Source: a virus. From it: a stretch of DNA of 64,000 nucleotides. The translations under genes were made by a program, and so were the position numbers. The notes beneath the pieces are model-generated. The model ran no database searches, was not told the origin of the DNA, and saw only the letters and a list, made by a program, of their open reading frames with translations. The stretch covers positions 3,888 to 67,887 of the IMG/VR virus record IMGVR_UViG_3300031772_000024; one strand, given 5' to 3'. Shown here in pieces: positions 10,036 through 60,765 of this stretch (the stretch's first letter is position 1; every line of letters starts with the position of its first letter).

Positions 10036-10077
10036 CGAACCTCACAACGCTCAAAAACGGGGTGTATCTTGAAAAGG

Positions 10078-10638
10078 GTGGGGCGCCGTATCCCGAATCT
10101 ACTTCATGAGAAGGCACTGGTCCTAGCGCCCGAGGGGCAGCCCTTTATTCTACCCTCGGGGAAGACATCGAATCTCTACGTGGATATGAAGCGGGTGCTC
10201 CTCAACGGGGGTGGACTCTACACGGTGGTTCAACGTCTTCATCACCATCTCCGATCCGTGGAGACGAAGTTCGTAGCGGGCGTAGCGCTCGGGGGCTACC
10301 CGTTGGCGACTGGGGTGTCTCTCTTCTCCTACGCTTTGGCAAAAGAGGCGCACCGCCAAGTCCCCGTCTACGACGTTCTCTACGTTCGGAAGGAGGCGCA
10401 CGGTATGGGGCAGCTTGTAGAGGGCACGTTCGAGCCAGGGGACACGGTCGCGCTCCTCGAAGACGTGGTGACGACGGGGGCGTCAAGCTTGCGGGCGATC
10501 GACGCGCTTCGGGCCGCCGGGCTGGTGGTGGTGCACGTCTTCGCTGTCCTGGACCGGGAAGACGGTGGGGCAGAAGCGTTGGAGGCCGCGGGTGTGCCTT
10601 TCGAGGCCCTGGCGTATATCTCCGATCTTCACCCCTAA
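10078..10638 (+). CDS. pyrE: Orotate phosphoribosyltransferase
   Basis: FILPSGKTSNLYVD, YVRKEAHG, PRPP motif LLEDVVTTGAS, LDRE; start placed 11 nt after GGTGTA. Confidence 0.9.
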   Translation: MGRRIPNLLHEKALVLAPEGQPFILPSGKTSNLYVDMKRVLLNGGGLYTVVQRLHHHLRSVETKFVAGVALGGYPLATGVSLFSYALAKEAHRQVPVYDVLYVRKEAHGMGQLVEGTFEPGDTVALLEDVVTTGASSLRAIDALRAAGLVVVHVFAVLDREDGGAEALEAAGVPFEALAYISDLHP

Positions 10639-10671
10639 GCCCAGCGCTTGTTTCTATCGCCCACACTTGGT

Positions 10672-13600
10672 GTGGACCGCCTTGGGACCAAAGACACGTA
10701 CGAGAGCCAGGAGAGCGAGGCCGAGCGCCTTGTGCGCCCTGCTCCTAAACTGAAGCCCTCGCGTCGTGATAAGCGGCGTGAACTGGTGAAGGAGAAGGAC
10801 GAGGATCTCGACGGCGATGACGGGGACGACAAGGATCTCACCCTCAACAAGAAGTACATTGGGGGGAGCGACACTTCGCGCGTCGTCGCGTACCGCTTCT
10901 TTATCCGCACGGCCAAGGATCGGATCAAGGTCATTCGGAAGGAGGACGGCAAGACCGTCCTCGTGTCCGAGAAGACGCTCAAGGAGAAGCCCTCGGAGTA
11001 CGAGGTCCCCGAAGAGGGGCTCGAAGATGCTCCGCCCGGCGTCGGCCCCCTCGTCGCCGAGAGAGCGCGCAAGCTCCTCCAGAAGGCGGAGAAGGACGAC
11101 CGCATCAAGTCCTACCTCAAGGACATCGCGAACCCTGAGCGCCTAGGGCAGGTCCCAGGGAAGAAGGAACTCCCGAAGCCCGTTGCCGATGTGCTCGGAC
11201 TGAAGTCCTTCGGTGAGGCTCGCGACATCGCCAAGGCGATGGGCGCCGTCCAGGACTGGGACAAGGCGCAAGACAAGGAAAAGGGTAAGGGCAAGGGTAA
11301 GGGCAAGAAGATACCGCGGGACGAAGAGCCCGAGGAGCCTGCGAAGCCGGCAGCAAAGGCTCCCAAGGTCGAGCAGCCTGAGGGAGCGGAAGAGCAGCCC
11401 AAGGCCAAAGCACCCCCTGCAAAGGAGCCCGAGGAGGAGAGCCCGAAGGAGGCCCCCGAGGGCGAGGCGCCGAAGAAGGAGAAGTCCAAGGGTAAAAAGC
11501 CCTCGAAGCCCAAGGTCGACACCGACGAGGTCGATAAGGGCTGGGACTCCGCGGAGGAAGCTGCTCCTCGGACGCAGTTCCTCAACGAGCACGAGGAGGA
11601 TTTCCACGACTTCCTTCGGGCGTTGCCCACGGGGTCAGAGGGCGACGGCGGACAGCCGCTCGTCCTCGACGACCACACGAAGAAGCTCGTCACCTTCGAC
11701 CAGGTGTCGCCCGCGCAGGCGAAGAGGGTTTTCGAGCGCTTCAAGGCGAACATCGACGCACAGACGAACGCCAAGGCGCTGCGGGATGCGCTCCCGAACG
11801 ATCGTCTGCGGCATGATCTCTACAAGGCATTCGTCGAAGGGGACAAGAAGAACCCTTTCTCCAAGGCCATTGCAGAAGCCACCACGAAGACCAGAGACCT
11901 CGGTGAGCAGTTCAACGAAGAGGACGCGCGCATCGACCGCGTCCTCCCCCAACTGAAGGGCAAGCTCCCCAAAGGTATCGAGACGCTGGCACAGCTTCGC
12001 GCGGCGGTGAACGGGGACAAGTCCCTCTTCGAGATGGACAAGGACCGAACGGCTTTACGTGAGGACATTGCCAAGCAGCAGAGCGATGAGGGCGTCAAAG
12101 CTCTCCTTCAGGACTTGTCGAACCCCTCCTCGAACGCAGCGGCGGCGCTCAAGGACAGGAAGCTCGATGATCCGGTCGTATCGAAGGACCCCGAGGGCAA
12201 GGAGATCAATGCCTTCCCGGGCTTAAAGCTCCCCGAGGGCACGACGATCGGCGACGTGGTCGAGGCCGCCAAGAAGCTGCACCCCGAGATCAAGCCGCTA
12301 AAGCGACGCCCCTTCACCAAGAAGGATGTCGCTGCCGAGTACCATCGCATCTTCAGTGTCACACCGTCCTACAAGATGGACCCCGAGACCCTCGCGGCGC
12401 TCGCCTCGTTCGAGGAGCTGCACCCTGATGATATCGGCCCAGCCTACGAAGCCTTCCTGAATGCCAAGAGTGCCAAGGGGACGCTATCGGACGATCTCTC
12501 GGTCGGGTCGAAGTTCTACGAGACGGACCCCGCCAAGGTCCGCCCGCCTGCGAAGTGGGTAGTGAAGGGGAAGGAAGTCCCGTTCGAGAAGCTCTCCCCG
12601 GAGCAACAGTCCCACGCGATGGCGGAGCATCGCGTCCAGACCGTGGCTTTGAGCCATGCAATGCGCGCGCGTGCAAGCACGACCCTGAAGAAGATGGGCG
12701 CGCCGGAGGGGCTCGTGTCCGCCGTCACGCCCAGGTTGTTCGCCAACCCCAAGACGACGGATTGGGACGCGGTGAAGTTGGAGGCGGATACCAGGTTCCG
12801 CACGGCCTTGGAAGAACCCCAAGAGCGGATGCCGGACGTCAAGATGCGGAAGCTCTTGGACACCCTCAAGGATGCACCCGCCGCGAGGCGTCTTGCGGTA
12901 TCGCAGCTTCAAGCGGCCGACTACCAGAAGGCCCTTGCCGATATCGACAAGGAGAGCTTGGACGAGCACACCAGCTCCCCGGACGATATTGCCAAAACAA
13001 TAGCTCGGGTGTGTGAGGACGTACGTGGCAGGTCCAAGGATTACGGACCGGATGCCCTCCAGGATACCCCCATGCTCGTCCGAGGGCGGGTCTTAGAGAA
13101 GCTTGACGCGGTGAACCCGGAGAAGGCAGCGCAGGTCCGGGAAGCCCTCAAAAGCCACCTGGAAGACGACCATTCGCAGGCGATGAAGCAGTACGAGGCG
13201 ATGAAGGCCCAGCACGAGAAGTCGAGCAACCCGTACCGCTCGGCCCCCCTGCCGGACGAGCCGCGCCCGCCTATTGGGTCAGGCAGCACGGCTTCGGGGA
13301 CCACGATGATGAACGAGTTCCGCAAGCGACTTGCAGGCAAATCCTTTTATCCGAAGGGTCGTTCGATGGAGTCCATCAACAAAGCTGCGATCTACCATGG
13401 CGTCGAGCCCTACCCGGCTGGGCATGAGGGCTTCGCCCCCTCTCAGGGGTGGACACAGGCGCAACAGCGCGACCTCGGCGAGAAGGACTTCGAAGGTATC
13501 GTGGCCTCGGCCAAGAAATGGCTGAAGACCCCATTCCTATCGGCCTCCGTCGAAGGGCTGCCTACAAGGGACATTGCTCGGGCAGCCCTCGACCTGGCCC

Positions 13601-14151
13601 TCAAGACGTTCGGGGGAGGGCGCTACGACGCATCACTATCGCCCCCAGCCTACGAGGTTGTCCTGAGCCGTATTGCTGGACGCGCAGGAACCGCAAGTTC
13701 CTCAACTTCTCCTTATGGGAGTACGACGTTCGAGGAGATCGCACACATGAAGGCCGCCACGCAGATCCGTTCCTACGCCGCGAAGATCGCTTCCACGCAT
13801 CCGGAAATCGCCTACGACCTGATCGATCTCTCCACCAAGCTCGCAGCGGAGGAGAAGGACGAGAAGGAGCAGGCGGACAAGAAGGACGACAAGAAGGACG
13901 ACAAGAAGGATGACAAGGGAGGCAAGCCGGCCTTCCCGGGCGCTGCTCCGCCCTTCGGTAAGAAGGATGCTCAGGATCAGGGTCAGCAGGATCAGGGTCA
14001 GCAGGATCAGGGTCAGAAGGGTCAGGAGCAGCAAAAGCAGGCTTCCGCGTACAACACCCTTCGCGCAGCCGTCATCCGCACGGCGGCCACGAACCCGGCT
14101 CTTCGTCAGTATTTCTACCCCGTGCTTCAGGTCATCAAGCAACTCGGGTGA
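10672..14151 (+). CDS. Large charged putative inner-head/virion protein, with probable in-frame internal starts at 13366 and 13747
   Basis: K/E/P-rich; lies directly upstream of the head module; TTTCTAT motif 14 nt upstream; many [KR]xA(A/S) motifs. Confidence 0.7.
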   Translation: MDRLGTKDTYESQESEAERLVRPAPKLKPSRRDKRRELVKEKDEDLDGDDGDDKDLTLNKKYIGGSDTSRVVAYRFFIRTAKDRIKVIRKEDGKTVLVSEKTLKEKPSEYEVPEEGLEDAPPGVGPLVAERARKLLQKAEKDDRIKSYLKDIANPERLGQVPGKKELPKPVADVLGLKSFGEARDIAKAMGAVQDWDKAQDKEKGKGKGKGKKIPRDEEPEEPAKPAAKAPKVEQPEGAEEQPKAKAPPAKEPEEESPKEAPEGEAPKKEKSKGKKPSKPKVDTDEVDKGWDSAEEAAPRTQFLNEHEEDFHDFLRALPTGSEGDGGQPLVLDDHTKKLVTFDQVSPAQAKRVFERFKANIDAQTNAKALRDALPNDRLRHDLYKAFVEGDKKNPFSKAIAEATTKTRDLGEQFNEEDARIDRVLPQLKGKLPKGIETLAQLRAAVNGDKSLFEMDKDRTALREDIAKQQSDEGVKALLQDLSNPSSNAAAALKDRKLDDPVVSKDPEGKEINAFPGLKLPEGTTIGDVVEAAKKLHPEIKPLKRRPFTKKDVAAEYHRIFSVTPSYKMDPETLAALASFEELHPDDIGPAYEAFLNAKSAKGTLSDDLSVGSKFYETDPAKVRPPAKWVVKGKEVPFEKLSPEQQSHAMAEHRVQTVALSHAMRARASTTLKKMGAPEGLVSAVTPRLFANPKTTDWDAVKLEADTRFRTALEEPQERMPDVKMRKLLDTLKDAPAARRLAVSQLQAADYQKALADIDKESLDEHTSSPDDIAKTIARVCEDVRGRSKDYGPDALQDTPMLVRGRVLEKLDAVNPEKAAQVREALKSHLEDDHSQAMKQYEAMKAQHEKSSNPYRSAPLPDEPRPPIGSGSTASGTTMMNEFRKRLAGKSFYPKGRSMESINKAAIYHGVEPYPAGHEGFAPSQGWTQAQQRDLGEKDFEGIVASAKKWLKTPFLSASVEGLPTRDIARAALDLALKTFGGGRYDASLSPPAYEVVLSRIAGRAGTASSSTSPYGSTTFEEIAHMKAATQIRSYAAKIASTHPEIAYDLIDLSTKLAAEEKDEKEQADKKDDKKDDKKDDKGGKPAFPGAAPPFGKKDAQDQGQQDQGQQDQGQKGQEQQKQASAYNTLRAAVIRTAATNPALRQYFYPVLQVIKQLG
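13876..14020 (+). repeat. Coding tandem repeats (12-nt DKKD x3; 15-nt QDQGQ x3)
   Basis: GACAAGAAGGAC and CAGGATCAGGGTCAG units are visible. Confidence 0.75.
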
Positions 14152-14203
14152 GACATACCTGTCTCTGATCCCACAGGCACAACACTAAGCCCAGGAGACG
14201 ACG

Positions 14204-14593
14204 ATGAAGTTCAAGTTTGCGGCCGAAGAGGCCAACCGGACGCTTTCCCGTCTGGACAAGTTGGCGGCGGACATCCAGGCGAACTACAAGGCGTGGGGTA
14301 TGCCTTTCGAGGACGCCCGCAACTTCGTGAACGCCCTCGACAAGACAGCAGACGAGGTCGAAGTCGCGTCCTTCGGCGAGAAGTCGTTCGAAGAGCGCCA
14401 GGCCGAGACCATCACGAAGATGGCGAAGGTCATCGGACGTGACGCCGACGAGTCGTACATGGATACGTTCAACTCGCCCACCAGGCCGTTGCAGACGGAC
14501 GGAGACGAGCCGTACATGAAGGCTTACGCCGACGATCAGTCCATGGCCGTTCAGTCGGGCAAGTCCACGACGGGCCGTCCTCTCGCTCCCTGA
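14204..14593 (+). CDS. Putative head/prohead core protein
   Basis: AGGAG SD; internal repeat DADESYMDTF / DGDEPYMKAY; head-module position. Confidence 0.65.
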   Translation: MKFKFAAEEANRTLSRLDKLAADIQANYKAWGMPFEDARNFVNALDKTADEVEVASFGEKSFEERQAETITKMAKVIGRDADESYMDTFNSPTRPLQTDGDEPYMKAYADDQSMAVQSGKSTTGRPLAP

Positions 14594-14598
14594 ACTGT

Positions 14599-14623
14599 CC
14601 TCTCAACTGTTCTTGTTGAGAGG
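14599..14623. terminator. Perfect 9-bp hairpin between head genes
   Basis: CCTCTCAAC-TGTTCTT-GTTGAGAGG; no strong U-tract. Confidence 0.45.
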
Positions 14624-14649
14624 TACCCCCGCTCGACAGTGGAGGTAAC

Positions 14650-15366
14650 GTGGGGACCGACTATCAGGCGTTGGCGAGGGACTTCAAGATCGGAGACGTT
14701 GTCCACAGGGCGTTCCCCACGTGGGTCGCAATGTCTCCGTTCGTAGGCCGTATCACGTCAGTGTTCCCAGGCATTGGGTGCTGTGACGTGCAGTGGCCCT
14801 ACGGAAACGAGCGCGTCCCGGTGGATGAGATCGTTCGATCAAATCCGGGCTTCCTGCCCTACCTCCCTCCGACACTCGATCAGTCGTTTCAGACGCTCGA
14901 AGTGTTGAAGGCTAGGCAGGCAGCGACTTCGGTTTGGCGCACGACGAGCCTCCCGCAAGGCTTTCATCTCGACATGGCGAGGCTCTGGGCACGGCAGGCG
15001 TCGGAGGTTGCGGCCTACGACGAGCTTTGGCGCCGCTATGCCAACGTCGCAGCGGACGACGCGATTCGTGACGAGGTCGACAAGTTCTACACGGTCGGGC
15101 GCAACCTCCCGATCGTGCTCATCCAGGCTGCCGCCCGGACGAAGTCCGCGGCTTACTGGGTTGCACAGAACCGTCAGTACCGCGCGACGAAGGAAGAGTT
15201 CTCGGCGCGTAAGCCTGGCTGCCCTCGGTGTTCGACCACCATGCGGCGGACGACCTACAAGATGAAGGAAGGCGCGAAGCATCGGCTATTCGGCTGCCCT
15301 CGATGCCTCTTCCTCATCAAAACCAACGACCTGTTGGCCCCTGACGGCGCTGCCGTCGAGTGGTGA
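14650..15366 (+). CDS. Head-module protein with SH3-like N-terminus and C-terminal zinc ribbon
   Basis: FKIGDVV...GRITSV..CDVQWPYG; CPRC...CPRC; GGAGG SD. Confidence 0.7.
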   Translation: MGTDYQALARDFKIGDVVHRAFPTWVAMSPFVGRITSVFPGIGCCDVQWPYGNERVPVDEIVRSNPGFLPYLPPTLDQSFQTLEVLKARQAATSVWRTTSLPQGFHLDMARLWARQASEVAAYDELWRRYANVAADDAIRDEVDKFYTVGRNLPIVLIQAAARTKSAAYWVAQNRQYRATKEEFSARKPGCPRCSTTMRRTTYKMKEGAKHRLFGCPRCLFLIKTNDLLAPDGAAVEW

Positions 15367-15376
15367 GGAGAACGGG

Positions 15377-15583
15377 ATGGCATTCGTAAAGCACGGGGCT
15401 GCTGTGCCCGCGAAGATGGTCGATATGGCATCCCTGATCAACTCGATCGGTCCTGGGTCCCGGGTGAAGCTCGGGGCCAGGGCGGGGACGGTCAGTAGCG
15501 TGTCGGGCACGAAGGCGTCGCTTGTCTTCGATGAGGACCAGGCCGAAGTCGAGGCGTCTCTGTCCTCGCTGACAAGGATCTGA
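15377..15583 (+). CDS. Small SH3/KOW-like protein
   Basis: IGPGSRVKL...GTV; GAGGAG SD; MAFVK start resembles the next gene's MAFLK. Confidence 0.55.
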   Translation: MAFVKHGAAVPAKMVDMASLINSIGPGSRVKLGARAGTVSSVSGTKASLVFDEDQAEVEASLSSLTRI

Positions 15584-15584
15584 G

Positions 15585-18500
15585 ATGGCGTTCCTCAAGT
15601 TCGCAAACGCAAAGGTATCACACTCGGACGTGACGTTCTCCGGGTGGGAGGACTTGCACGCGAAGAGTGGACACAAGTCGAAGCAGGCGTCCTCGAAGGT
15701 TGTATTCAAGGACTACGATCCGAAGGACTACCTCCTCACGCACTGCTCGATCGTCGCCTCTGTCGATACGGAGGACGGCCCCGGCCCTCTAGGCAAGCAC
15801 CTGGTGGATGGCTTCCAGGTCGATCGCCAGTTCTCGGACTACTACGTCACGAGCAACACGATCCCCTGGGTCAACAACAACAACGATGCGTTCGAGCGAA
15901 GGATTCTCCTCGCGACGTACCGCACGTTCGTGGGTTCGTACAACTACGTCGAGCACCTTCAGATCCCGGCCCTCTCGAAGGGCAAGATCATCGACGCAGC
16001 GGCCAGGGACATCGGCGACTCGATCTACGTAGACATCCTGGTCGCTACAGAGCGCAAGCACCGTCCCCTCATCGCGGCCATAACGAGCGGTCAGCTTCAG
16101 ACGCTCAGCATGGGCTGCTCAGTGTCCTATACGACCTGCACCAAGTGCGGCAACGTCGCGCTCGACGAGTCCCAGCTATGCGCGCACATTCGGTACTTCA
16201 AGGGCAGCGAGTTCTACGACGACTTCGGCAAGAAGCGGAAGATCGCCGAGCTTTGCTTCCCGGCGGGTACACGGATAACAAGTGGGGATGGGCGCCCTGT
16301 CGCAATTGACGACCTCCAGATTGGTGACTCTGTATTCACGCACTTAGGTCGCCGCCGGGAGGTTACTGAAAAGTTTGAACGTCACTACGAAGGAGACGTT
16401 GTTACACTCTCGGTCGTTGGCCACCCGTATACGACCTTCAAGTCTACCCCTGGGCATCCTTATTATGTATTGAGCCCTCGTGATACCTGTGCTTGCGGGT
16501 GTGGTGCCTCTCTCACTACAAGGAAGACTTTCTCACACCAAGAGTATCTCCGATCCTATGCCCCTGGGCATAACCCCACGGTTCAGGGCATTCATACGCT
16601 AAAGCCACAGGCTTTCAATTTTAGGGATGCCAAGGATATTAGGGTCGGTGATCAACTTCTCCTGCCCATCCCTACCGAGGTTCGACAACCAGTCGATGTG
16701 GATACGGATCGAGCCTACCTTCTAGGTTGGTTCCTCGCAGAGGGTAGTTTTGAGAAAGTGCAGGGGAAACATACGAAAGTGTGTTTTACCCTCAATGCGG
16801 AAGATGAGAAAGAGGTCGCAACAACAATATCGAACCTTCTTGCCAAGTGCTTCCCCCCTGAGACTCCGCATCGTCGTCTGTCTAGTACCCCTGGTAAGTC
16901 GCTGATCCGTCAAGGCATCGAGTCCCTGACAAATATCACGGATAAGATCCTAAAGGCTTTAGCGGCTGGAGAGGTTCTGTCTTCTGATGTGAGGGGTGCC
17001 ACCAAGGAAACTATCAGCGTTATTCTCAATAGGTACAAGGCTAAGGGTCTGGTCAGTTCTAGGCCCTTGCGTGCAGGAGAGCGTGCTGAGATCCGCGGAC
17101 GTGCCCGTTCGAGGGCTTGTGTCTGGACGTGGGTAGGAAACGAAGCACCTGTATCACTTCTCAGTGATCGACAAGGTAAAGACCATTGGCGGACACACCC
17201 CCTTGCAAACGAAACAGAGATGATGCCTCGCATTTATCTCTACCCTCGTTTGGAAGGTGGTGAGAAACTGACGGTCGTTTACCGGAACGACCGCGCCGCA
17301 GCATGGTTCCTAAACCACGCGGGGGAATACGCTGGGAGCAAGCATCTATCCAGTGACGCAGTCCTATGGCCTAAACCGTTGCAAACCGAGTTACTAAGAG
17401 GCTACTTCCACGGGGACGGTAGTGCTGATAAGTTCGGTCGGCATAGTGTGTCGTCCGTGTCTGACGCGCTCATCACCCAGATGCAGTTGGTTGCGACACG
17501 CTGTGGTTTCTGGACTAGACGCCAGATCATCTTCGAGGGGAAGGCCACCTCCATCGAAGCCATGGTTGCGAATGGTGAACCTCTCGTCGTTGGGTATGAT
17601 GGATGTCGGCCCCGGCATGAACTGCATTTGCAACCTTCGAATGAAGCCACCGAGACATTTGCATTCGAGAAGGCCACTTCTCATGTAAGGGGGCTCGAAC
17701 CTAAGTGGCGTCAACATGACGGTTACCTTCTATACAGGGTAAGTCGTGTTGGCCTCGAACACTTCTCAGGCCCTGTCTACAATATATCTGTCGATGAGGA
17801 CGAGTCCTATCTAGTCAACGGGCTCGCAGTTCATAACTGCGGGCACCACTCGGATCCCGAGAGCGTCAAGTTCATCGAGGCATCGTGGGTTGCCAACCCT
17901 GCCTTCCGTGGCGCCGTCCTGCGAAGCATCCTCTCGCAGGAGGAGACCGAGAAGGTTGCGGGGCTGATCCATTCCGGACTCAATGCCTCCGGCCCTCAGA
18001 TCGATCACACGCTCGTGCAGAAGGCGGCCAGTGCAGCGGCCTTCAGCGTCGCTTCCGCGGAGTGGTCCCGTAAGGGCGAAGGCCAGTTCGACTTCGGCGA
18101 CCTCGGCGGGCAGGGCGGCGGCGGGCAGGGCGGCGGTGACTCCAAGAAGGACGACACCAAGAAGGACGACCCGCTCGAAAAGCTCGTCGGTGATCTCGCG
18201 GACAACATCCGTGAGCGTGCCCTGAAGAAGATCCGCGAGGAGATGGGCAAGGACGAGGCGAAGAAGGTCGACAACCTCGACCTCAACTCTCAGAACGAGA
18301 GCCTCATCAAGTCTGCCATGGCCTACCCGGCTTGGCGTGGGATTGCCCGGTCTGTCCTCAAGATCGCAGGTTCCCCGAAGGCAGCACGTCAGATTCTTCT
18401 TGGCCTCATGCTTCACCGCACCGGTGGTTGGCAGGCCGTGGAGAAGGCAAAACTCTCTGGCCATGAGATCCTGGCCGTATCGAGGATCTTGGATCTTGCC

Positions 18501-18689
18501 ATGCGCAAGACCGCAATGGCCGGTGAGGGTCGTCTCTACAGGACTGTAGTTGCGAGCAGAGGGGTTCGGTCTCATCCCTCGGAAACCAAGTACCTGGATA
18601 CCTGTCGTCAGGCCATGGGAAGGGACATCACGGACCATGAGAAAAGGTTCCTGATCGCAAAGGGACGACTATTCTCGATGGGTTTGTGA
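15585..18689 (+). CDS. Prohead (capsid maturation) serine protease, intein-containing
   Basis: NNNNDAF, YVEH (His), KGKIIDA, LSMGC (Ser), CTKCGN..CAH, EASWVANPAF; position upstream of scaffold and MCP. Confidence 0.8.
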   Translation: MAFLKFANAKVSHSDVTFSGWEDLHAKSGHKSKQASSKVVFKDYDPKDYLLTHCSIVASVDTEDGPGPLGKHLVDGFQVDRQFSDYYVTSNTIPWVNNNNDAFERRILLATYRTFVGSYNYVEHLQIPALSKGKIIDAAARDIGDSIYVDILVATERKHRPLIAAITSGQLQTLSMGCSVSYTTCTKCGNVALDESQLCAHIRYFKGSEFYDDFGKKRKIAELCFPAGTRITSGDGRPVAIDDLQIGDSVFTHLGRRREVTEKFERHYEGDVVTLSVVGHPYTTFKSTPGHPYYVLSPRDTCACGCGASLTTRKTFSHQEYLRSYAPGHNPTVQGIHTLKPQAFNFRDAKDIRVGDQLLLPIPTEVRQPVDVDTDRAYLLGWFLAEGSFEKVQGKHTKVCFTLNAEDEKEVATTISNLLAKCFPPETPHRRLSSTPGKSLIRQGIESLTNITDKILKALAAGEVLSSDVRGATKETISVILNRYKAKGLVSSRPLRAGERAEIRGRARSRACVWTWVGNEAPVSLLSDRQGKDHWRTHPLANETEMMPRIYLYPRLEGGEKLTVVYRNDRAAAWFLNHAGEYAGSKHLSSDAVLWPKPLQTELLRGYFHGDGSADKFGRHSVSSVSDALITQMQLVATRCGFWTRRQIIFEGKATSIEAMVANGEPLVVGYDGCRPRHELHLQPSNEATETFAFEKATSHVRGLEPKWRQHDGYLLYRVSRVGLEHFSGPVYNISVDEDESYLVNGLAVHNCGHHSDPESVKFIEASWVANPAFRGAVLRSILSQEETEKVAGLIHSGLNASGPQIDHTLVQKAASAAAFSVASAEWSRKGEGQFDFGDLGGQGGGGQGGGDSKKDDTKKDDPLEKLVGDLADNIRERALKKIREEMGKDEAKKVDNLDLNSQNESLIKSAMAYPAWRGIARSVLKIAGSPKAARQILLGLMLHRTGGWQAVEKAKLSGHEILAVSRILDLAMRKTAMAGEGRLYRTVVASRGVRSHPSETKYLDTCRQAMGRDITDHEKRFLIAKGRLFSMGL
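16254..17837 (+). mobile_element. Full-size intein with LAGLIDADG endonuclease (528 aa)
   Basis: CFPAGT start, block B STPGHPY, LGWFLAEGS and LRGYFHGDG motifs, VYNISV...AVHN|C end; visibly lower GC than the extein. Confidence 0.92.
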
Positions 18690-18735
18690 CGATTGTTTCT
18701 ATAACGATTCAGATGCGAGGAAAGGACCCCGGAAA

Positions 18736-20034
18736 ATGCGCGTGCGCACCACTTGGAACGAGGAGGCCATCGCAAAGCGAGCCTCAATGGGCAAGCAAGC
18801 CGATCCGTACCTCATGAACCAGGACCATGTGAAGGTTCAACCGAAGGTTGATGCCTACGCGAATGGGGACCCCTCTTCCTGGGCTGAGGACGTGAACGAA
18901 GAGAACCGCTGGGAGGCTGAGTATTCTGGCGGGCAAACATCCCGGAACGAAATCGGGATGCCGGAGCTTCGCAAGGAGACCTTCAACCACCCCGAGAAGA
19001 CTGCGGCCATGGATGAGGCATTCCTGATGAAGAAGGCCGATCTCGCGACGCGCGTCGCTCGGATCATGCTCGGCAAGACGGCGGCGGATGGCGCGGTCGA
19101 GGATCAAGCCCTCGCGCTCATGTACGTCCCGGACACCTCGCTCATCGAGACGTTCACGCGTCTCGCGTCCGAGCAGGGCGAGCAGCAGGAGCAGCAGCAG
19201 TCCCAGAGCCAGGAAGAGGAGCAGCAGCAGAAGCAGGCTGCCGCCAAGAAGGCTCAGGACGAGCAGCAGGCTCAGGGGCAGGAGCAGGCTCAGGGGCAGG
19301 CTCAGGAGCAGCAGAAGAAGCAAGCGGCCCAGGAATGCATCGCTCGGCTTCAGCGTGCCGTGCAGGCGGGTGACCTCACGCAGGTCAACGCGGCTGTTCA
19401 GCAGTTGATCGCTCAGCAGCAGATGCCGCAGCAGGCCGGACAGCAGATGACCCAGCAGAGCCAGGACCAGATCCAGGCGGCGGTCATGGGCATGGTCCAG
19501 CAGGCGCTTCAGCAGGGTCAGCAGGGTCAGCAGCAGATGCCCCAGCAGGGTCAGCAGCAGATGCCTCAGCAGGGTCAGCAGCAGATGCCCCAGCAGGGTC
19601 AGCAGCAGATGCCCCAGCAGGGCCAGCAGATGATGCAACAGGGTCAGATGACGGACGATCTCCTTCTCGACGAGATGCTCGGTGGCCAAGGCCAGATGGG
19701 CGTCAACGAGATGGACATCGAGCTGGAATCCCCCTCGATGGATGTTGGTGAAGTCGACCTCGGCCCCGAGGACGAAGTTCTCCGCAGCCTCTTCGCCAAC
19801 GGCGAAGCGCAGGATGCCCAGCAGGCGCAGCAGGCCGAGCAGGGGAAGCAGGCGGCCTTCGTCAGCCGTACCGCCGCAACGCGTACGGTCGGCACCCGTC
19901 CCACGGTCGGCATCTCTCGTATCGGCGGGTCCGTCGGTATGCAGGGTTCCGCACCCCCCGTTCAAGAGGTCGAGAAGCTCGCGGCCCTCTGGACTTCAGC
20001 CCCGGATGTCAAAGACGTCTTCGGGATGAGGTGA
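18736..20034 (+). CDS. Putative scaffolding/core protein, glutamine-rich
   Basis: Lies between protease and decoration/MCP genes; poly-Q low complexity; repeated KTAA/KQAA. Confidence 0.65.
   Translation: MRVRTTWNEEAIAKRASMGKQADPYLMNQDHVKVQPKVDAYANGDPSSWAEDVNEENRWEAEYSGGQTSRNEIGMPELRKETFNHPEKTAAMDEAFLMKKADLATRVARIMLGKTAADGAVEDQALALMYVPDTSLIETFTRLASEQGEQQEQQQSQSQEEEQQQKQAAAKKAQDEQQAQGQEQAQGQAQEQQKKQAAQECIARLQRAVQAGDLTQVNAAVQQLIAQQQMPQQAGQQMTQQSQDQIQAAVMGMVQQALQQGQQGQQQMPQQGQQQMPQQGQQQMPQQGQQQMPQQGQQMMQQGQMTDDLLLDEMLGGQGQMGVNEMDIELESPSMDVGEVDLGPEDEVLRSLFANGEAQDAQQAQQAEQGKQAAFVSRTAATRTVGTRPTVGISRIGGSVGMQGSAPPVQEVEKLAALWTSAPDVKDVFGMR
19519..19632 (+). repeat. 24-nt tandem repeat (QQGQQQMP) x4 plus a partial copy
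   Basis: CAGCAGGGTCAGCAGCAGATGCCC units at 19519, 19543, 19567 and 19591. Confidence 0.9.
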
Positions 20035-20143
20035 AGTTCCGGAGAGGGCGTCCTAGTGGCCCCCTCTCCAAAAACCAACGCCTGGATTGGCGCCGAGATC
20101 GAATGTGTATTGGTAAGCACCCCAGCATTTAAGGAGACTGAAC

Positions 20144-20776
20144 ATGGCTCTTTCGCCCCTCGGCGGCCAAAGCTCGGGTGACTTCAGGGAGACATCCGCT
20201 CGCGTACAAATCTTCCACGTCGTCACCCGCAACAGCGTGGGTGTCCTGACGCCGGACGCGTTCACGCAGGCGAACCCCCCGATTGTCACCGCAGGCGCCA
20301 ACAAATCCACGACGCTCGCAGGCATCACCAAGGCCGGCGTCCTCGGAGGCAGCGTTGCCTTCACACGCTACGATTACGGCAACGGCTGGATCGGTGGCCC
20401 GATCCAGATCGCATCAGCGTATGACGCGAAGATCCGACCGCTCGGCATCTTCATCAACGACGCCCTCGGCAACGCGTTTGAGAACACGCCTGGCGTGGCT
20501 TCCGGACGCGGACCCTACGTGTGTGGCTCGGGCTCCGTCCTCGGGGTCGCGGTCTACGAGACGAAGATCCAGATCGGCGCCTCCACGGCGCTGACGTACT
20601 CGTCGGGCGATCTCGTGTACGCGTCGGTCAACGGTCTCCTCACGAACCGTGTCCAGGACGCATACGAGTACAACGTCTCGGGTCAGAACCAGGTCTACTT
20701 CCCGGCTGTCATGGGAGTGGTCAAGGTCGCCCCGGATGCAAACAACGCTCTTCTGGTCATCGACCTGAGGGTGTGA
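20144..20776 (+). CDS. Capsid decoration/cement protein
   Basis: Gene immediately before MCP; RPLGIFIND and LTYSSGDLVYASVNGLLTN pattern; AAGGAG SD. Confidence 0.65.
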   Translation: MALSPLGGQSSGDFRETSARVQIFHVVTRNSVGVLTPDAFTQANPPIVTAGANKSTTLAGITKAGVLGGSVAFTRYDYGNGWIGGPIQIASAYDAKIRPLGIFINDALGNAFENTPGVASGRGPYVCGSGSVLGVAVYETKIQIGASTALTYSSGDLVYASVNGLLTNRVQDAYEYNVSGQNQVYFPAVMGVVKVAPDANNALLVIDLRV

Positions 20777-20821
20777 CCTAGCCCGTAACCAGGTAACCCA
20801 AGAAAGCAAAGGGCAAAAGTC

Positions 20822-21724
20822 ATGTTCCCTACGATGGCAATGCAGACCCAGCAGGTCTCCAACGAGGTGAAGCAAAAGATCATCTCGGAGTACATCAAGA
20901 CGGCCGCCGGCCGCGCGAAGCTCGCTGCTTCGATGATCCAGCCGCTCCGCCTCCGCCGTGACTACACGGCAGTCGGCCGCAAGACGTTCCTCGTCGAGCA
21001 GCTTCCGGACGGCGCTCTTCCCATCTACGACAAGGATCCGGATGTTACGGCCTTTGTCGTCGGCGAAGAAGGCGAGAACATCCTCGCGATCCAGAAGCCG
21101 CGCCGCGTGATCTTCCCGCTGTTCGAGGTCGCCTCGAACCCGGAGATCCCGCTCACGCAGATCAAGGAGCGTCGCTTCGACCTCATCGAGCGCAGCCAGG
21201 ACCTCGCGAAGGCGCAGATCCAGGCGGCGGAAGATGAGCGCGTGTTCGCGGTCCTCGACAGCATCGCTGTCTCGGGCTTCGACACCCTCCCTGGCCAGAC
21301 GAACCCGGACGTGGCCGTCGTCGCCCCGATCTCGCCCAGCGTCCTCGCGGATGCCTTCGCCGAGATCGAGCGTCACGACCTCAGGGTTGCTCGCATCTAC
21401 ATGAACGCTGTCGACTACGCGGACATCCGCAAGTTCGGCCGCGACATCCTCGACATCGAGTCGCAGGCGACCCTCCTCAAGACGGGCCTCCAGGCCGTCC
21501 TCTGGGGCGCGCAGATCATCACGAGCCGCCTCGTGCCGGTCGGCTTCGTGTACGTGTGTTGCGAGCCCGAGAACTTCGGTCGCTTCCCCGTGCGCACTGA
21601 GCTGACGGTGCTCTCGGCGGACGACGCGAAGGCGCGCACGATCGGCTTCTCGTGCTTTGAAAATGTCGGCGTCGGGGCCTTCAACCCCCGTGGCCTCACC
21701 CGCATGGTCGTCCAGCGCTTCTGA
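20822..21724 (+). CDS. Major capsid protein (HK97-like fold)
   Basis: ~300 aa; strong codon bias; FEVASNPEI...RRFDLIER...AAEDERVF, GAQIITSRLVPVG, IGFSCFENVG; follows protease-scaffold-decoration order and has a strong terminator. Confidence 0.85.
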   Translation: MFPTMAMQTQQVSNEVKQKIISEYIKTAAGRAKLAASMIQPLRLRRDYTAVGRKTFLVEQLPDGALPIYDKDPDVTAFVVGEEGENILAIQKPRRVIFPLFEVASNPEIPLTQIKERRFDLIERSQDLAKAQIQAAEDERVFAVLDSIAVSGFDTLPGQTNPDVAVVAPISPSVLADAFAEIERHDLRVARIYMNAVDYADIRKFGRDILDIESQATLLKTGLQAVLWGAQIITSRLVPVGFVYVCCEPENFGRFPVRTELTVLSADDAKARTIGFSCFENVGVGAFNPRGLTRMVVQRF

Positions 21725-21763
21725 TAGAAGCCTGGAATTTGCGCTGAATTAGCGCGAATCACG

Positions 21764-21795
21764 AAGGGCTGGCTCCGAAAGGAGTCGGCCCTTTG
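21764..21795 (+). terminator. Terminator after MCP
   Basis: AAGGGCTGGCTCC-GAAA-GGAGTCGGCCCTT-T. Confidence 0.75.
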
Positions 21796-21897
21796 GCGTT
21801 CCATAGTGGAGCATTAACGCATTTACTGAGCACGAGAGCCCGATGTTGAGCGAGGCCGTGGGGTGCCCTCGGGAAGGATCTGCGCTACGACGGATGA

Positions 21898-22848
21898 GTG
21901 CGCGCCATCCCTTGCCCCATCTCTCCGAAGGAACTTCGTCGCCTCTACGTGACTCGGAAGCTGACGGACGAAGAGATCGTTGCCCGCCTCGGGGAGGGCG
22001 CGACGTTGAAGAGGGTCCGGTCCTGGCGAAAGCGGTTAGGCATCGAGACCATCTCCCCGCTCGACCGTCACAAGGTGACGCCAGTTGAAGGGAAGCTGCG
22101 GTCGCTTCTCGTTGGCTCGATGCTCGGTGATGGCCGACTTCATCGGACGCCGAACGGGGCACGCTTCATGGAGAACCACGCCGACGACCAGCGCGAGTAC
22201 ATCGCGTGGAAGGTCAAGCAGTGGGGTCCGTGGGTGAAGGGCGGCTTGAACCCCGTGACGTGGACGAACGACGGAGGCACGTTCCAGGGCTGGCGGTTCC
22301 ACACGGTCTGCCATCCGTCACTCATCGAGTGGCACGCACGCTTCTACGACGAGACGGGACCCAAGCGCCTTTCACGCGAGGTCATCGACTACGTGGACGA
22401 CTTCGCCCTTGCCGTTTGGTTCATGGACGATGGCTCCGTTGGTTGGTGGCCGCGCATCACGTTCGGCATGGACGACGTGAGCCAAGCCATGGCTCTCGCG
22501 ATTTTTGAGCGCTTCGGTTTCGCGCCTCGGTGGCAGATCCACAAGGAGCGGACGGGCGACTTCATCTTCGAGGGCGAAGATCAGGCGGAGCGCTTCCTCG
22601 CGCTCGTGAAGCCGCACATGCCGAAGACGATGGAGCGGAAGCTCACACACGGCTTTCAAGGCCCGCACTACCAAATGCGCAAGGCATTGACGCCCGAGGC
22701 GCTCCGAGAGTTAGCCTCGAAGGGGGTGCCCATTCGGCGCATGGCTGTCATGCTCGGGCAGACCCCGAGTAGCGTCAACCGCTTCCTTAAGCACTTCGGC
22801 ATCGAGCACCCGCGTAAGGTTGGGCGTCCGCTGCGCAATGCGGTGTAG
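21898..22848 (+). mobile_element. Free-standing LAGLIDADG homing endonuclease with terminal HTH segments
   Basis: LVGSMLGDG and ALAVWFMDDG motifs; HTH-like N- and C-termini. Confidence 0.88.
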
Positions 22849-27424: not shown

Positions 27425-28003
27425 ATGAGCATCCACGGGAAGAACGCACGCAAAGAAGGCCGGGCGCCCGCGGTCGCTCTTTGGAACCCACGCTTCCCGT
27501 TCAACGTGGGGAGCGCGGTCCGGGCCGCAAGTTGCTTCGGGATCGAGCAGGTGTGGTTCACGGGAGAACGTGTCCAGCTCGCTCTCGACGAGAAAAAGCG
27601 CCTTCCCCGTGAGGAGCGGATGAAGGGCTACAAAGAGGTCGAGCTTCGGAACTACGACCACGTATTCGACCAGTACGACCTGACGCAGGTCACGCCCGTC
27701 GCGGTCGAGCTGCGGCCCAACGCGGAGTCCCTCCCCGCTTTCGAGCACCCGGAGAACCCCGTCTACTTCTTCGGCCCCGAGGACGGGACGATCCCGCAGT
27801 CTGTCCTTCGGCAGTGCCACCGCTTCGTCGTGATTCCGACGCGTCACTGTGTGAATCTGGCGGCGGCGATCTACCTCGTCCTTTACGATCGGATGGTGAA
27901 GACGGCTACGGGGCCGCTCACGATTCGGGACACCCTTGCCGAGTCTCGGTTCGACTTCGCCCACGGCGACCTCTCCGACAAGCTCGGCCTCACCATGGCT
28001 TAG
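27425..28003 (+). CDS. SpoU/TrmH-family RNA methyltransferase
   Basis: PFNVGSAVRAASCFG, YFFGPEDG, IP..CVNLAAA..VLYDR SPOUT motifs. Confidence 0.9.
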   Translation: MSIHGKNARKEGRAPAVALWNPRFPFNVGSAVRAASCFGIEQVWFTGERVQLALDEKKRLPREERMKGYKEVELRNYDHVFDQYDLTQVTPVAVELRPNAESLPAFEHPENPVYFFGPEDGTIPQSVLRQCHRFVVIPTRHCVNLAAAIYLVLYDRMVKTATGPLTIRDTLAESRFDFAHGDLSDKLGLTMA

Positions 28004-28005
28004 GA

Positions 28006-29289
28006 ATGCGCAGAAGCCTTCGAGAAGCAGCGAGACAGACCGCCGAAGCCCGTCGACAGTCCAAGGCCAGCCGTGTGGCGTCCGACGCCGAAGCGGCGCG
28101 GAAGCGGCTGGAAGGCGTTCAGAAGGCGCTCGCGGGCTCCAAGACGCAGAGCATCGTCGATGCGATGTTCGACGGGTCGGGGAAGTGTCTTGGCTTTCGC
28201 TTCCCCGCCGAGGACCCCTCGCCGGAAAACCTTCGGGGCGTTCTCCGGGTCGTCGAGCAACGGGCCGCCCGCCTTCTGACGACGGACTACGTCAAGGCGA
28301 TCAGCAACGCCTACCCGCTGACGCCTCTCCGGTCCATCGAGGCGTGGGAGCCCCGCGGGAAGGGCCGGGACACGCTGTTCATCTCGCTCATGGAGCACCT
28401 CTACGCGAAGTTCCCCATGCCGCCGTTCATTTGGTCGGCGTTCTTCGATGCCGAGATCACCAAGCTGCGCCCGGTCGTCGGTCACGTTGCGGCGGGCGGA
28501 AGCCTCCACGAGGCCGTGAAGACGAAGCTCTTGCCGCTGCCTTTCACCCGTCGCATGTGCCACGAGTTCATGCAGACGGAGAGCGACGTGCGGTTTCTCA
28601 CCGCCCTCCGTCGAGTCCAGGTGCGGACCTCGGGAGGCCACGAAAGGCTCTTGTCCGCGTGGCTCGCGGCGCCCCCCGGGCGTTCGATCCTCCAGCCCGA
28701 GGACGAGGACTTCTGGAGCACCGTTCTCGACTGGATGGCGCGGAACCCGATGCTGGACCCCACCCAGGTGGGGCCGCTCGTAGACTACATCATGACGCGC
28801 CGCCGCGAGGACCGGGCCTTCTCGATGAAGGGGCGCACGGTCCTCGCCCTTATGCGGGACATGGCCGCGTGGCATGGCGATCTGGCCAAGACGAAGAACA
28901 TCAAGGGCGCCCACTTCAAGCCCTCGGGGTACCGGGCGGGGCACTTCGATCGCTCCAAGAAGGAGGAGTGGGGCACGCCCCAACTCAACATCTGGCACGT
29001 CCGGGAGATCCTCTCCGGGAACGATCTGGCCGAAGAGGGACGCAAGATGAAGCACTGCGTCTACTCGTACGCGAGCCGGGTGCAGAGCGGCGACACCTCG
29101 ATCTGGTCGATGACCCGTGAGACCTACGGCGGGACGGAACGCGCCCTCACGATCGAAGTCCAGAACGCTACTCGTCGAATCGTACAGGCCCGCGGCCCTT
29201 ACAACAAGCAACCGAGCGCGCTTGAACACACGGTTCTCGTCCAGTGGGCGGGCCTGAACAACTTCACTCTTTCATTATCACGCTGGTGA
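28006..29289 (+). CDS. PcfJ-domain protein
   Basis: C-terminal LAEEGRKMKHCVYSY...SIWSM...LTIEV...IVQARGPYN. Confidence 0.85.
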   Translation: MRRSLREAARQTAEARRQSKASRVASDAEAARKRLEGVQKALAGSKTQSIVDAMFDGSGKCLGFRFPAEDPSPENLRGVLRVVEQRAARLLTTDYVKAISNAYPLTPLRSIEAWEPRGKGRDTLFISLMEHLYAKFPMPPFIWSAFFDAEITKLRPVVGHVAAGGSLHEAVKTKLLPLPFTRRMCHEFMQTESDVRFLTALRRVQVRTSGGHERLLSAWLAAPPGRSILQPEDEDFWSTVLDWMARNPMLDPTQVGPLVDYIMTRRREDRAFSMKGRTVLALMRDMAAWHGDLAKTKNIKGAHFKPSGYRAGHFDRSKKEEWGTPQLNIWHVREILSGNDLAEEGRKMKHCVYSYASRVQSGDTSIWSMTRETYGGTERALTIEVQNATRRIVQARGPYNKQPSALEHTVLVQWAGLNNFTLSLSRW

Positions 29290-29692
29290 CATCGGGATCC
29301 CGGTCATAGGTCGGCAGTGCCCCAGGCGGCAGGGGCTCTATCAGGAACATGTTGCGGCCGATCGCCTGGTAGAACCCCATGTAACGTTTGCACGTTCCGC
29401 AGACGTACCCGCTTCGTGGCCCTGAGCGAAGGAACGCGTTCAGCATGAGGATGGGGGCGGCTTTCACCCGCCACTTCTTCAACTGCTTCTTTCGGATGCG
29501 GCGGTTGCGACTACGCGGCGGCTGCCCAAGGAGTTCTTTCGGCGGGGGCTCCATGGGCCGTTCGTGCAGCAACCCTCCGCATGTGCAGTGAAGCTTGGTA
29601 GGTCGACCAAGCACGACTTCCTTCTTGCGGCTCTCCTCCTGACGGATAGCGGCGGCGATGAGCGCTGACTTGATATCGTTGGATATGTCCAT
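29264..29692 (-). CDS. Zinc-binding basic protein with C-terminal major-capsid-like segment
   Basis: CTCGG...CGTC; RSRNRRIRKKQLKKW; C-terminus is 20/29 identical to MCP residues 48-76; GGTGTA motif and GAGG SD upstream. Confidence 0.75.
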   Translation of the reverse strand: MDISNDIKSALIAAAIRQEESRKKEVVLGRPTKLHCTCGGLLHERPMEPPPKELLGQPPRSRNRRIRKKQLKKWRVKAAPILMLNAFLRSGPRSGYVCGTCKRYMGFYQAIGRNMFLIEPLPPGALPTYDRDPDVTSVIMKE

Positions 29693-29789
29693 GGTCCGCC
29701 TCTCGGACTACACCATGCAGGTTTGGTGTGACTCGCGTCCTCGAAGAAGTGCTCCGGCCGAAAGCTGCCTAGTGGGGTAGGGGTAGCCC

Positions 29790-60727: not shown

Positions 60728-60765
60728 TGACTTCCCCTTACACCGCTCCGGAGTAGTATGGCGGT

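Follow-up and report, generated by a model that had tools for sequence, protein, structure and literature searches.

Features of the locus

The window, a stretch of 64,000 nucleotides (positions 3,888 to 67,887 of IMG/VR record IMGVR_UViG_3300031772_000024), belongs to a huge phage (about 0.5 Mb) of the phage G capsid lineage that is known only from sediment metagenomes. It encodes the major capsid protein (MCP) and a small basic protein, ORF142, the C-terminus of which is a copy of part of the MCP. The features of the two genes are as follows.

20822..21724, plus strand: MCP gene (300 amino acids; phrog_2522, E 3.8e-52), donor of the copied segments
20849..20923, plus strand: MCP residues 10-34, first helix of the N-arm, matching the ORF142 N-terminus
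20963..21067, plus strand: MCP residues 48-82, comprising the end of the N-arm helix, a short helix, a strand (57-60) and the loop into the E-loop
29264..29692, minus strand: ORF142 coding sequence including the stop codon (142 amino acids, ATG start, pI 10.1)
29267..29371, minus strand: C-terminal tail (residues 108-142), copied from residues 48-82 of the MCP, with the conserved core at residues 107-129
29375..29410, minus strand: putative Zn knuckle 2, residues 95-106 (C98, C101), with strands 95-98 and 104-106 in the AF2 model
29423..29512, minus strand: basic helix, residues 61-90, net charge +11 (AF2 helix 64-89)
29558..29602, minus strand: putative Zn knuckle 1, residues 31-45 (C36, C38), with strands 31-35 and 41-44 in the AF2 model
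29618..29692, minus strand: helix at the N-terminus (residues 1-25), with weak similarity to residues 10-34 of the MCP N-arm
29699-29704, minus strand: purine-rich GAGAGG upstream of the ORF142 ATG
29709-29714, minus strand: GGTGTA, 22 nt upstream of the ORF142 ATG

The identity of the donor, which a first-pass annotation of the window had taken to be the MCP, is established by the PHROG match and by similarity to gp27 of phage G (PDB 6wkk, E 2.1e-59). A homing endonuclease gene adjoins the MCP gene. The window also has a candidate scaffold (18736-20034), a protease (15585-18689) and a decoration protein (20144-20776). ORF142 lies on the other strand, away from the block of head genes and amid genes of nucleotide metabolism and replication. 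The GGTGTA sequence that had been reported before the gene is present, and is common to ORF142 and non-structural genes (at a spacing of 22 nt from the ATG of ORF142, versus 16-17 nt) and absent from positions 10,067-22,841, which contain the head genes; its proposed use as a marker of genes that are not late is supported only indirectly.

The GC contents of the three codon positions of ORF142 (0.59/0.46/0.74) are coding-like, and the coding sequence is without frameshifts in contigs from four other sediment samples, with three synonymous and three non-synonymous differences, a total too small for a selection test, half of which (one synonymous, two non-synonymous) come from a contig end with a depth of 2.5. 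The AF2 model of the tail has a helix at residues 107-115 and no regular structure beyond residue 115, and its confidence is low (pLDDT block means of 56, 42 and 47 from residue 121; below 50 from residue 128). The tail alone is predicted to be disordered, as would fit a peptide that takes up its fold on binding a partner.

Structure searches of PDB and BFVD with ORF142 returned nothing at E<=0.001; the best-ranked BFVD entry was a head-vertex initiator, regarded as noise at E 0.45 and TM 0.16. There was no match at >=0.9 in the protein atlas, and none to phrog_2522 or Phage_capsid in Pfam and PHROG scans. Assignment to PF23546 (Zn_ribbon_TOP3B) was rejected, the match covering 10 residues and scoring 16.2 bits (E 0.0085) where the gathering cut-off is 27, as was assignment as a full HK97-fold MCP (phrog_2522 / PF05065), only residues 1-25 and 108-142 of ORF142 being MCP-like.

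Relationship of ORF142 to the major capsid protein

Residues 108-142 of ORF142 align by BLASTP with MCP residues 48-82 without gaps (21/35 identical, 27/35 positive, E 1e-13). Within this alignment is the gapless match noticed originally, of 29 residues (ORF142 108-136, positions 29285-29371, versus MCP 48-76, positions 20963-21049), for which the count of 20/29 identities was reproduced by hand. Profile-profile comparison of the ORF142 and MCP families gives E 9.1e-16, and the tail also matches the region of residues ~40-75 of phage G gp27 (tblastn, 42.9% over 35 residues). The DNA sequences of tail and MCP agree at 67 of 105 bases (68/108 alignment columns); the 35 aligned codons comprise 9 that are identical, 12 that differ synonymously and 14 that differ non-synonymously, so that 12 of the 21 codons for identical residues have changed synonymously. 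The low match at the DNA level means that the copy is old rather than recent, and has been kept by selection.

The copied stretch overlaps the 23-residue windows of the MCP family that start at residues 52-62, for which conservation is 0.81-0.82 compared with a mean of 0.66, and it includes 10 invariant MCP columns, as expected for an element that makes contacts. The idea that the tail contains a prohead-protease cleavage site was set aside: the acidic residue before the proline is Asp in one large MCP clade, and the chain sequence of 6wkk spans the segment (a deposited sequence need not reflect processing).

The N-terminus of ORF142 is weakly similar to the MCP N-arm (hhalign P 9.6e-4, probability 22%), and that of its homologue in the related genome G001 matches the MCP by BLASTP (10/30 identical, E 2e-4), collinearly with the tail match. 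Overall, ORF142 resembles a duplicate of the MCP's first ~80 residues that has gained, by insertion, two Zn knuckles and a basic helix.

The ORF142-like family and its distribution

A profile search with the ORF142 family found at least 282 representatives at E<=1e-3. Of 155 proteins examined, 116 have the layout of ORF142, with CxxC directly preceding the MCP-like peptide; 62 of these 116 were detected by an HMM built from MCP residues 47-76 only, and in these the peptide is nearly always terminal, with a median of 9 residues after the match so defined. Among 60 aligned sequences, C98 and C101 are invariant, C36 and C38 are present in at least 90%, and the tail, with the consensus GFYxAIGRNxFxVEPLPxGAxPxY, directly follows the second knuckle. 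The pI exceeds 9 in 58 of the 60. The Zn-binding, Arg/Lys-rich domain predicted from the single sequence is borne out by these four cysteines together with the net charge and pI of ORF142.

Conservation within the family peaks in the tail, where the commonest residue has a mean frequency of 0.64 versus 0.24-0.57 in the other segments (60 sequences); Y108, P122 and Y129 are common to the family and the MCP. This is contrary to what the first-pass annotation had said would mark a neutral recombination relic, namely a segment not conserved in homologues. The conservation of the tail, combined with synonymous sites that are largely scrambled relative to the MCP, indicates that the tail is under selection. 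Tails nevertheless vary widely, keeping invariant residues of their own (N114; E119-P120 in most), and they diverge among four genomes (G000, G001, G003 and G005) in which the MCP segment has two differing residues at most. Outside the tail the protein evolves fast: identity between G000 and G001 is 44%, whereas their MCPs are 94% identical.

A Pfam scan of the 60 members found no family common to them, PHROG searches with the family gave nothing usable, and PADLOC matched none of seven proteins, which shows only that they are absent among known defence proteins. A search of the open literature found no description of the family and no paper on capsid-derived peptides carried by non-structural phage proteins. 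The accessible portions of PMC7824862 and 10.1101/2024.12.16.628780 contain nothing on capsid-derived peptides, and the term decoy in 10.64898/2026.01.04.697583 has its mass-spectrometry sense only.

Among five whole relatives, a profile search found ORF142 in G001 only; it was not found in G002 (100% complete, with an MCP 91% identical), LR745208.1, Tunturi_5 or phage G. ORF142 is an accessory gene, dispensable for this capsid type. Synteny around it has been lost, the adjoining CoaE-like gene being matched weakly and in one of four relatives. A search for conserved neighbours over 10 loci found no gene common to the family, with the exception of an AAA ATPase gene, which in G001 and G002 is close to the genes with the module and which is absent from the window's record. 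The capsid-arm-like N-terminus, the large family and the accessory character of the gene had not been part of the first-pass annotation.

The same capsid segment on other proteins

A search of related phages for fusions of the peptide, as had been proposed, found the MCP segment on proteins of several kinds. A thymidylate kinase of related huge phages carries it (PF02223, E 6.6e-32), as do a second type of Zn-ribbon protein (L076, L077, L082, L083), a family with a conserved N-terminal domain of unassigned fold (L078, L101, L102, L105-L107), forms that have only a basic helix (L079-81, P0117, P0126, P0151, P0152), and proteins with larger uncharacterised domains (P0138, P0143, P0147, P0148, L056), in which matches to phrog_2522 are confined to profile positions 24-225. 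A candidate fusion to a YfbR-like domain is a weak match, below the cut-off (E 0.014). The sharing of one terminal peptide by many unrelated cargoes is what a targeting or docking signal would show. We know of no precedent for the packaging of a thymidylate kinase into a capsid.

Other fragments of the MCP are also found in relatives, one a copy of the E-loop (L059, E 6.5e-5) and one of the C-terminus (L060, E 9e-4).

Possible functions of the capsid-derived tail

The reading that we prefer, with a probability of roughly 0.4, is that the tail of ORF142 is a tag for docking on, or targeting to, the capsid or its assembly partners. ORF142 would be a free-standing and much altered version of the MCP's first ~80 residues. 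It retains the first helix of the N-arm as well as the strand and loop leading into the E-loop, and between these parts the pair of Zn knuckles and the very basic helix are inserted. The tail would bind whatever the MCP segment binds, either a neighbouring capsid subunit or the partner of the N-arm in the procapsid (scaffold), and its docking would deliver the Zn domain, which is basic and probably binds nucleic acid, to capsids under assembly; ORF142 would then be an internal protein, a cargo or a factor linked to assembly. Against this stand the dispensability of the gene in close relatives and its location away from the head block. GGTGTA at ORF142 also argues against co-expression with the capsid genes, although the signal is not linked to timing here. 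In the HK97 fold the copied strand is a partly internal element of the P-domain, so that docking of a free copy on folded MCP is not obvious. A prediction of the complex of the MCP with ORF142 residues 100-142, run without controls, scored 0.00 against a mark of 0.32 and counts neither for nor against binding. More tentatively, huge phages of the phage G lineage may have made a piece of 25-35 residues of their own MCP (N-arm / pre-E-loop) into a portable address tag, which brings proteins to or into the capsid and has been put on more than 100 divergent small Zn-ribbon proteins as well as on enzymes and other domains.

The first-pass annotation had proposed either a factor that docks into procapsids or an early-expressed mimic that occupies a capsid sensor, and of these the former has gained from the finding of the capsid segment on unrelated domains, including an enzyme. 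The latter, in which a protein made before the capsid presents the conserved capsid stretch to a host protein that senses MCPs and occupies this sensor without triggering it, perhaps with the Zn/basic domain neutralising the sensor once the tail has bound, now seems rather unlikely. Host sensing of this kind exists: Lit senses a short peptide from the N-terminal region of gp23 of T4, and CapRel SJ46 senses an MCP. A decoy would also suit the patchy, accessory distribution of the gene, its fast evolution outside the tail, its position amid non-structural genes that have the same gene-start motif, and the copying of the most constrained stretch of the MCP, which would be the best target for a sensor. 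However, the tails vary widely where the segment of their own MCPs is nearly constant, a decoy would not need fusion to a kinase or to large domains, and the PADLOC result gives no link to known defence proteins. Docking fits the new data better, and the decoy is mildly disfavoured on these sequence comparisons.

Somewhat less probable again is a regulator titrated by the capsid, in which the Zn/basic domain would bind DNA or RNA and control expression or replication until accumulating MCP or scaffold sequestered it through the tail, coupling the programme to assembly, with the enzyme fusions switched likewise. The basic four-cysteine domain, the setting of the locus among replication and nucleotide-metabolism genes, and the fact that the thymidylate kinase and the weak YfbR-like candidate are both enzymes of nucleotide metabolism would all agree with such a role, but neither a target site nor a fold for binding nucleic acid was recognised (no match at E<=0.001 in PDB and BFVD), and dispensability in close relatives would be odd for a core switch. 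That ORF142 is a weapon, a dominant-negative copy of a capsid contact that poisons capsid assembly in related phages of the same capsid type during co-infection, appears improbable: its own MCP has the same motif and would be equally exposed, with no self-resistance feature seen, and the enzyme fusions are left unexplained, even though the gene is accessory and fast-evolving and the tail is about equally like the wider consensus of phage G-like MCPs and its own MCP (by hand count, 19/35 for the L020-L030 MCP clade versus 21/35). The notion of a stray capsid-gene fragment in an open frame, to which the dispersed MCP fragments of relatives and the homing endonuclease gene beside the MCP gene might lend some colour, is effectively refuted by the size of the family, the conservation of the tail within it, the synonymous changes and coding-like base composition, and the intact frame in other samples.

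A docking function of the tail, if true, would provide a simple rule, readable from sequence, for proteins that travel with or act at the capsids of uncultured phages of 0.3-0.5 Mb, and a short, naturally occurring peptide with which to load cargo into HK97-fold shells of very large size; a general address tag would be a virus-made counterpart of encapsulin loading, with the tag taken from the shell protein itself. A decoy, if that is what ORF142 is, would be the first known case of a phage copying part of its own MCP to blind a capsid sensor. On either reading, a family of at least 282 clusters with no Pfam or PHROG match gains a testable hypothesis.

Comparison with known systems

The donor of the tail belongs to the protein family of phage G gp27 (PDB 6wkk), from which ORF142 differs in having no A-domain, rest of the P-domain or E-loop, so that it cannot form a shell. 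Internal proteins of T4 have an N-terminal capsid targeting sequence that is cleaved, the prohead protease of HK97 has a C-terminal targeting tail, and the T4 internal proteins act against host restriction. The internal Dar proteins of P1 likewise act against host restriction (PMC12810830). These head-targeted proteins resemble ORF142 in being small, often basic, accessory and dispensable for assembly, with a terminal signal; they have no sequence relation to ORF142, which is encoded outside the head block.

Encapsulins are HK97-fold shells that load unrelated cargo proteins through a common short peptide, mostly C-terminal, and thus share with the ORF142 module the placing of one short terminal peptide on unrelated proteins. 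The encapsulin peptides are not derived from the shell, whereas the putative ORF142 tag is a copy of the N-arm / pre-E-loop of the shell protein. In the Gol peptide of T4 gp23 recognised by Lit, and in the MCP sensed by CapRel SJ46, a stretch from the N-terminal part of the capsid protein is a self-sufficient recognition element, as the tail of ORF142 may be, but those elements are triggers inside an MCP and ORF142 is a separate protein; no phage-encoded stand-alone capsid copy acting as a decoy was found in the literature searched. In SaPI1, CpmB copies the C-terminus of the phage 80alpha scaffold, a peptide that contacts the MCP N-arm, and so, like ORF142, is a second protein with a copy of a capsid-assembly contact peptide; there, a satellite copies the scaffold side and redirects capsid size, whereas in ORF142 the phage itself copies the capsid side.

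Genomic setting of ORF142

The virus record that includes the window, 67,887 bp long and rated 14% complete, would derive from a phage genome of roughly 0.5 Mb. Its major capsid protein (MCP), a 300-residue product, was recognized by matches to phrog_2522 (E 3.8e-52) and to gp27 of phage G (PDB 6wkk; E 2.1e-59); it matches 228 phage records, of which the nearest are those of the uncultured 485-kb phage LR745208.1 (83% identical), Tunturiibacter phage Tunturi_5 (47%) and Bacillus phage G (37.5%). ORF142, one of the few minus-strand genes, is flanked by a PcfJ-like gene on one side and an ORF without assigned function on the other, and the genes around it are non-structural (UDG-like, SpoU-like, dephospho-CoA kinase, CYTH, helicases).

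Features of the window
15585-18689 (+), ORF of 1034 residues with head maturation protease homology (phrog_18299, E 1.9e-10)
20822-21724 (+), MCP
21898-22848 (+), LAGLIDADG homing endonuclease (PF03161, E 4.3e-22), directly downstream of the MCP gene
27814-29289, PcfJ-like gene (PF14284, E 2e-15), convergent with ORF142
29264-29692 (-), ORF142, 142 residues, 7.5 kb downstream of the MCP gene
6110, 25508, 26356, 27409, 30304, 30944, 56330 and 60739-60744 (-), example sites of the GGTGTA motif

The protease homology is restricted to residues 105-208 of its ORF. The 3' ends of ORF142 and the PcfJ-like gene share 26 nt (29264-29289), and a population variant there (29278 T>C) alters both proteins (ORF142 I139V, PcfJ-like S489P).

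The window contains 30 copies of the hexanucleotide GGTGTA where 10.6 would be expected, an approximately threefold excess that none of 100 shuffles reached. At 21 of the sites an ORF of 50 or more residues has its start codon 8-30 nt further on, and in 10 cases the distance is exactly 16-17 nt; in ORF142 the motif lies 22 nt upstream of the ATG. No copy was found between 10,067 and 22,841, the block containing the protease, decoration protein and MCP genes, which would fit the label of a non-late motif given in the first-pass annotation. GGTGTA may mark one expression class, as a promoter or leader signal specific to the phage.

A capsid segment at the C-terminus of ORF142

An ungapped match to the MCP, with 20 of 29 residues identical over ORF142 residues 108-136, had been noticed from the sequence; the count is correct, and the present analysis bears the observation out and takes it considerably further. 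The full match joins residues 108-142 (the tail) to MCP residues 48-82 (21/35 identical, E 1e-13), and the segment has no further match within the virus record. At the DNA level 67 of 105 positions are identical, with 9 codons identical, 12 differing synonymously and 14 non-synonymously; thus the duplication is old, and the common residues are kept by selection on the protein. GC content by codon position (0.59/0.46/0.74) is coding-like, and no frameshift inside the coding sequence was found in contigs of four other sediment samples.

The ORF142-like family

Searching by words retrieved only 7 relatives (45-57% identity). With a profile run against 1.84 billion representatives, 282 passed E<=1e-3, of which 96 also passed E<=1e-10 and 12 passed E<=1e-30. 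We classified the layouts of 155 proteins (P0002-P0156) with our own script. In 116 a CxxC knuckle immediately precedes the peptide, as in ORF142; an HMM built from MCP residues 47-76 alone matches 62 of these at E<=0.01, with a median of 9 residues after the match. Of the others, 8 are parts of an MCP with its body included, 8 combine the N-module and E-loop without the body (several resemble MCP genes called with a frameshift, not fusions), 12 have the N-arm and peptide alone, 10 carry the peptide in other surroundings, and one belongs to none of these classes. In an alignment of 60 sequences the layout is constant: an N-terminal helix, a CxC(GG) knuckle, a linker, a very basic helix, the CxxC knuckle and the tail, with tail consensus GFYxAIGRNxFxVEPLPxGAxPxY. 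The tail core (residues 107-129) is the most conserved segment (0.64 versus 0.24-0.57 elsewhere), and 58 of the 60 members have a pI above 9. No Pfam family covers the ORF142-like family.

Small proteins bearing the tail were found in seven IMG/VR records, all large or small fractions of large genomes: the window's own record (14% complete), G001 (85%) and G004-G008 (10-65%; 44-211 kb), from which genomes of about 0.3-0.5 Mb are estimated. The window's record, G001 and G005 also carry a phage-G-type MCP; the other four are fragments without one. When whole records were searched with the family profile, a member was present in G001 (406 kb) but none in G002 (100% complete), LR745208.1, Tunturi_5 or phage G, where only the MCP itself is matched; G002 also encodes an MCP-derived 303-residue protein. 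ORF142 shares 44% identity with its G001 homologue whereas the two MCPs are 94% identical, and gene neighbourhoods are not conserved; by these comparisons the gene is accessory and fast-evolving.

The same capsid piece on other proteins

Viral and metagenome contigs were scanned and inspected frame by frame. The MCP N-terminal piece was found in many other protein settings. Of 50 loci in the first viral scan, 47 turned out to be normal MCP genes or frames truncated by contig ends. A thymidylate kinase (L058, on G003:C1, frame 772-1875 of the locus; PF02223, E 6.6e-32; same protein in L098) is fused at its C-terminus to the N-arm helix of the MCP together with the conserved peptide and the E-loop's returning strand, the E-loop tip being absent. 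The 303-residue protein of G002 copies MCP residues 17-149 (48% identity; phrog_2522, E 5.8e-26 over profile positions 42-225). The piece follows a second kind of Zn ribbon in L076, L077, L082 and L083, stands behind a common N-terminal domain of unrecognised fold in L078, L101, L102 and L105-L107, and is joined to a common N-terminal domain without assignment in P0138, P0143, P0147 and P0148. A 294-residue frame (L096, 4163-5044) has an MCP-like peptide near its N-terminus and a C-terminal part with a weak match, below the cut-off, to YfbR-like HD 5'-deoxynucleotidases (E 0.014). The LAGLIDADG endonuclease beside the MCP gene could be an aid to spreading MCP fragments.

Two proteins (P0112, P0142) join the MCP N-arm and peptide to a hydrophobic, twin-arginine-like N-terminus (a PF10518 match below the cut-off, E 0.013, in P0142; by eye alone in P0112), and could be membrane-anchored or exported versions. 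The G002 and G003 genomes carry dispersed MCP fragments of several kinds, including, in unrelated frames, copies of the E-loop (L059 of G003; MCP 66-130, 32% identity, E 6.5e-5) and of a C-terminal strand (L060 of G002; MCP 249-285, E 9e-4). Genes for homologous AAA ATPases (32.6% identical over 301 residues, E 2e-44; PF00004, E 4.2e-12) adjoin module-bearing genes in G001 (L003, 12494-13855) and G002 (L056, 2169-3371), and no homologue is present in the window's record.

Origin and predicted structure

The G001 homologue has two collinear matches to its own MCP, one in the tail (25/31 identical, E 2e-15) and one at the N-terminus (residues 2-31 against MCP 3-32; 10/30, E 2e-4). In a profile comparison, residues 1-25 of the window's family align to MCP residues 10-34 (P 9.6e-4) with a probability of only 22%, so that the N-terminal likeness to the N-arm is suggestive, short of proof. 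By our unscored reading, remnants of the second N-arm helix can still be recognised ahead of the peptide in P0152, P0117 and L079, which lack the second knuckle. From these matches and remnants, ORF142 is read as a probable copy of the first ~80 MCP residues in which Zn knuckles and a basic helix have taken the place of the middle part. AlphaFold2 models agree in outline with this capsid-arm origin: the MCP segment is predicted to run from the end of the N-arm helix (28-48) through a short helix at 52-55 and a strand at 57-60 into a low-confidence E-loop, and ORF142 is predicted to have a helix (107-115) followed by no regular structure (block pLDDT 70 for residues 111-120, then 56, 42 and 47; below 50 from residue 128). 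In terms of the HK97 fold, the copied strand is the one leading into the E-loop.

Possible functions

Since the tail is predicted to be disordered, is strongly conserved and occurs on many unrelated domains, a docking or targeting element is its best explanation. The N-arm and E-loop base of HK97-fold capsids make inter-subunit and scaffold contacts; the tail copies this contact-making part, so MCP subunits or scaffold would be its likeliest binding partners, and ORF142, a basic Zn protein, would be brought to assembling heads. We give this recruitment a probability of about 0.4; the dispensability of ORF142, its genomic position and its GGTGTA motif class count against it.

A decoy for host defence, which the first-pass annotation had proposed beside an assembly factor, would suit an accessory, fast-evolving gene, but fits neither the enzyme fusions nor the divergent tails and is unlikely. 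The MCP segment is almost identical across the window's record, G001, G003 and G005 whereas the tails are highly divergent, and keep characteristic residues (N114, for instance, in 90% or more of 60 aligned sequences, where MCPs have K or R), which argues that selection does not act for strict mimicry of the MCP of the same phage. Below both docking and decoy we rank a regulator titrated by capsid protein, which is rather improbable, a poison against competitors, for which the chances are slim, and a relic, which is hardly credible. The finding is of real interest and lends itself to direct testing with a 35-residue peptide.

Known systems include the internal anti-restriction proteins of T4 and P1 (PMC12810830). 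Searches of the open literature found no account of non-structural phage proteins that carry peptides derived from a capsid protein. The nearest mechanisms are the cargo-loading peptides of encapsulins, the capsid targeting sequence of T4, the targeting tail of the HK97 protease, and the copy of an 80alpha scaffold peptide in CpmB of SaPI1. None of these tags is known to be derived from the shell protein itself, whereas the tail of ORF142 copies the shell protein.
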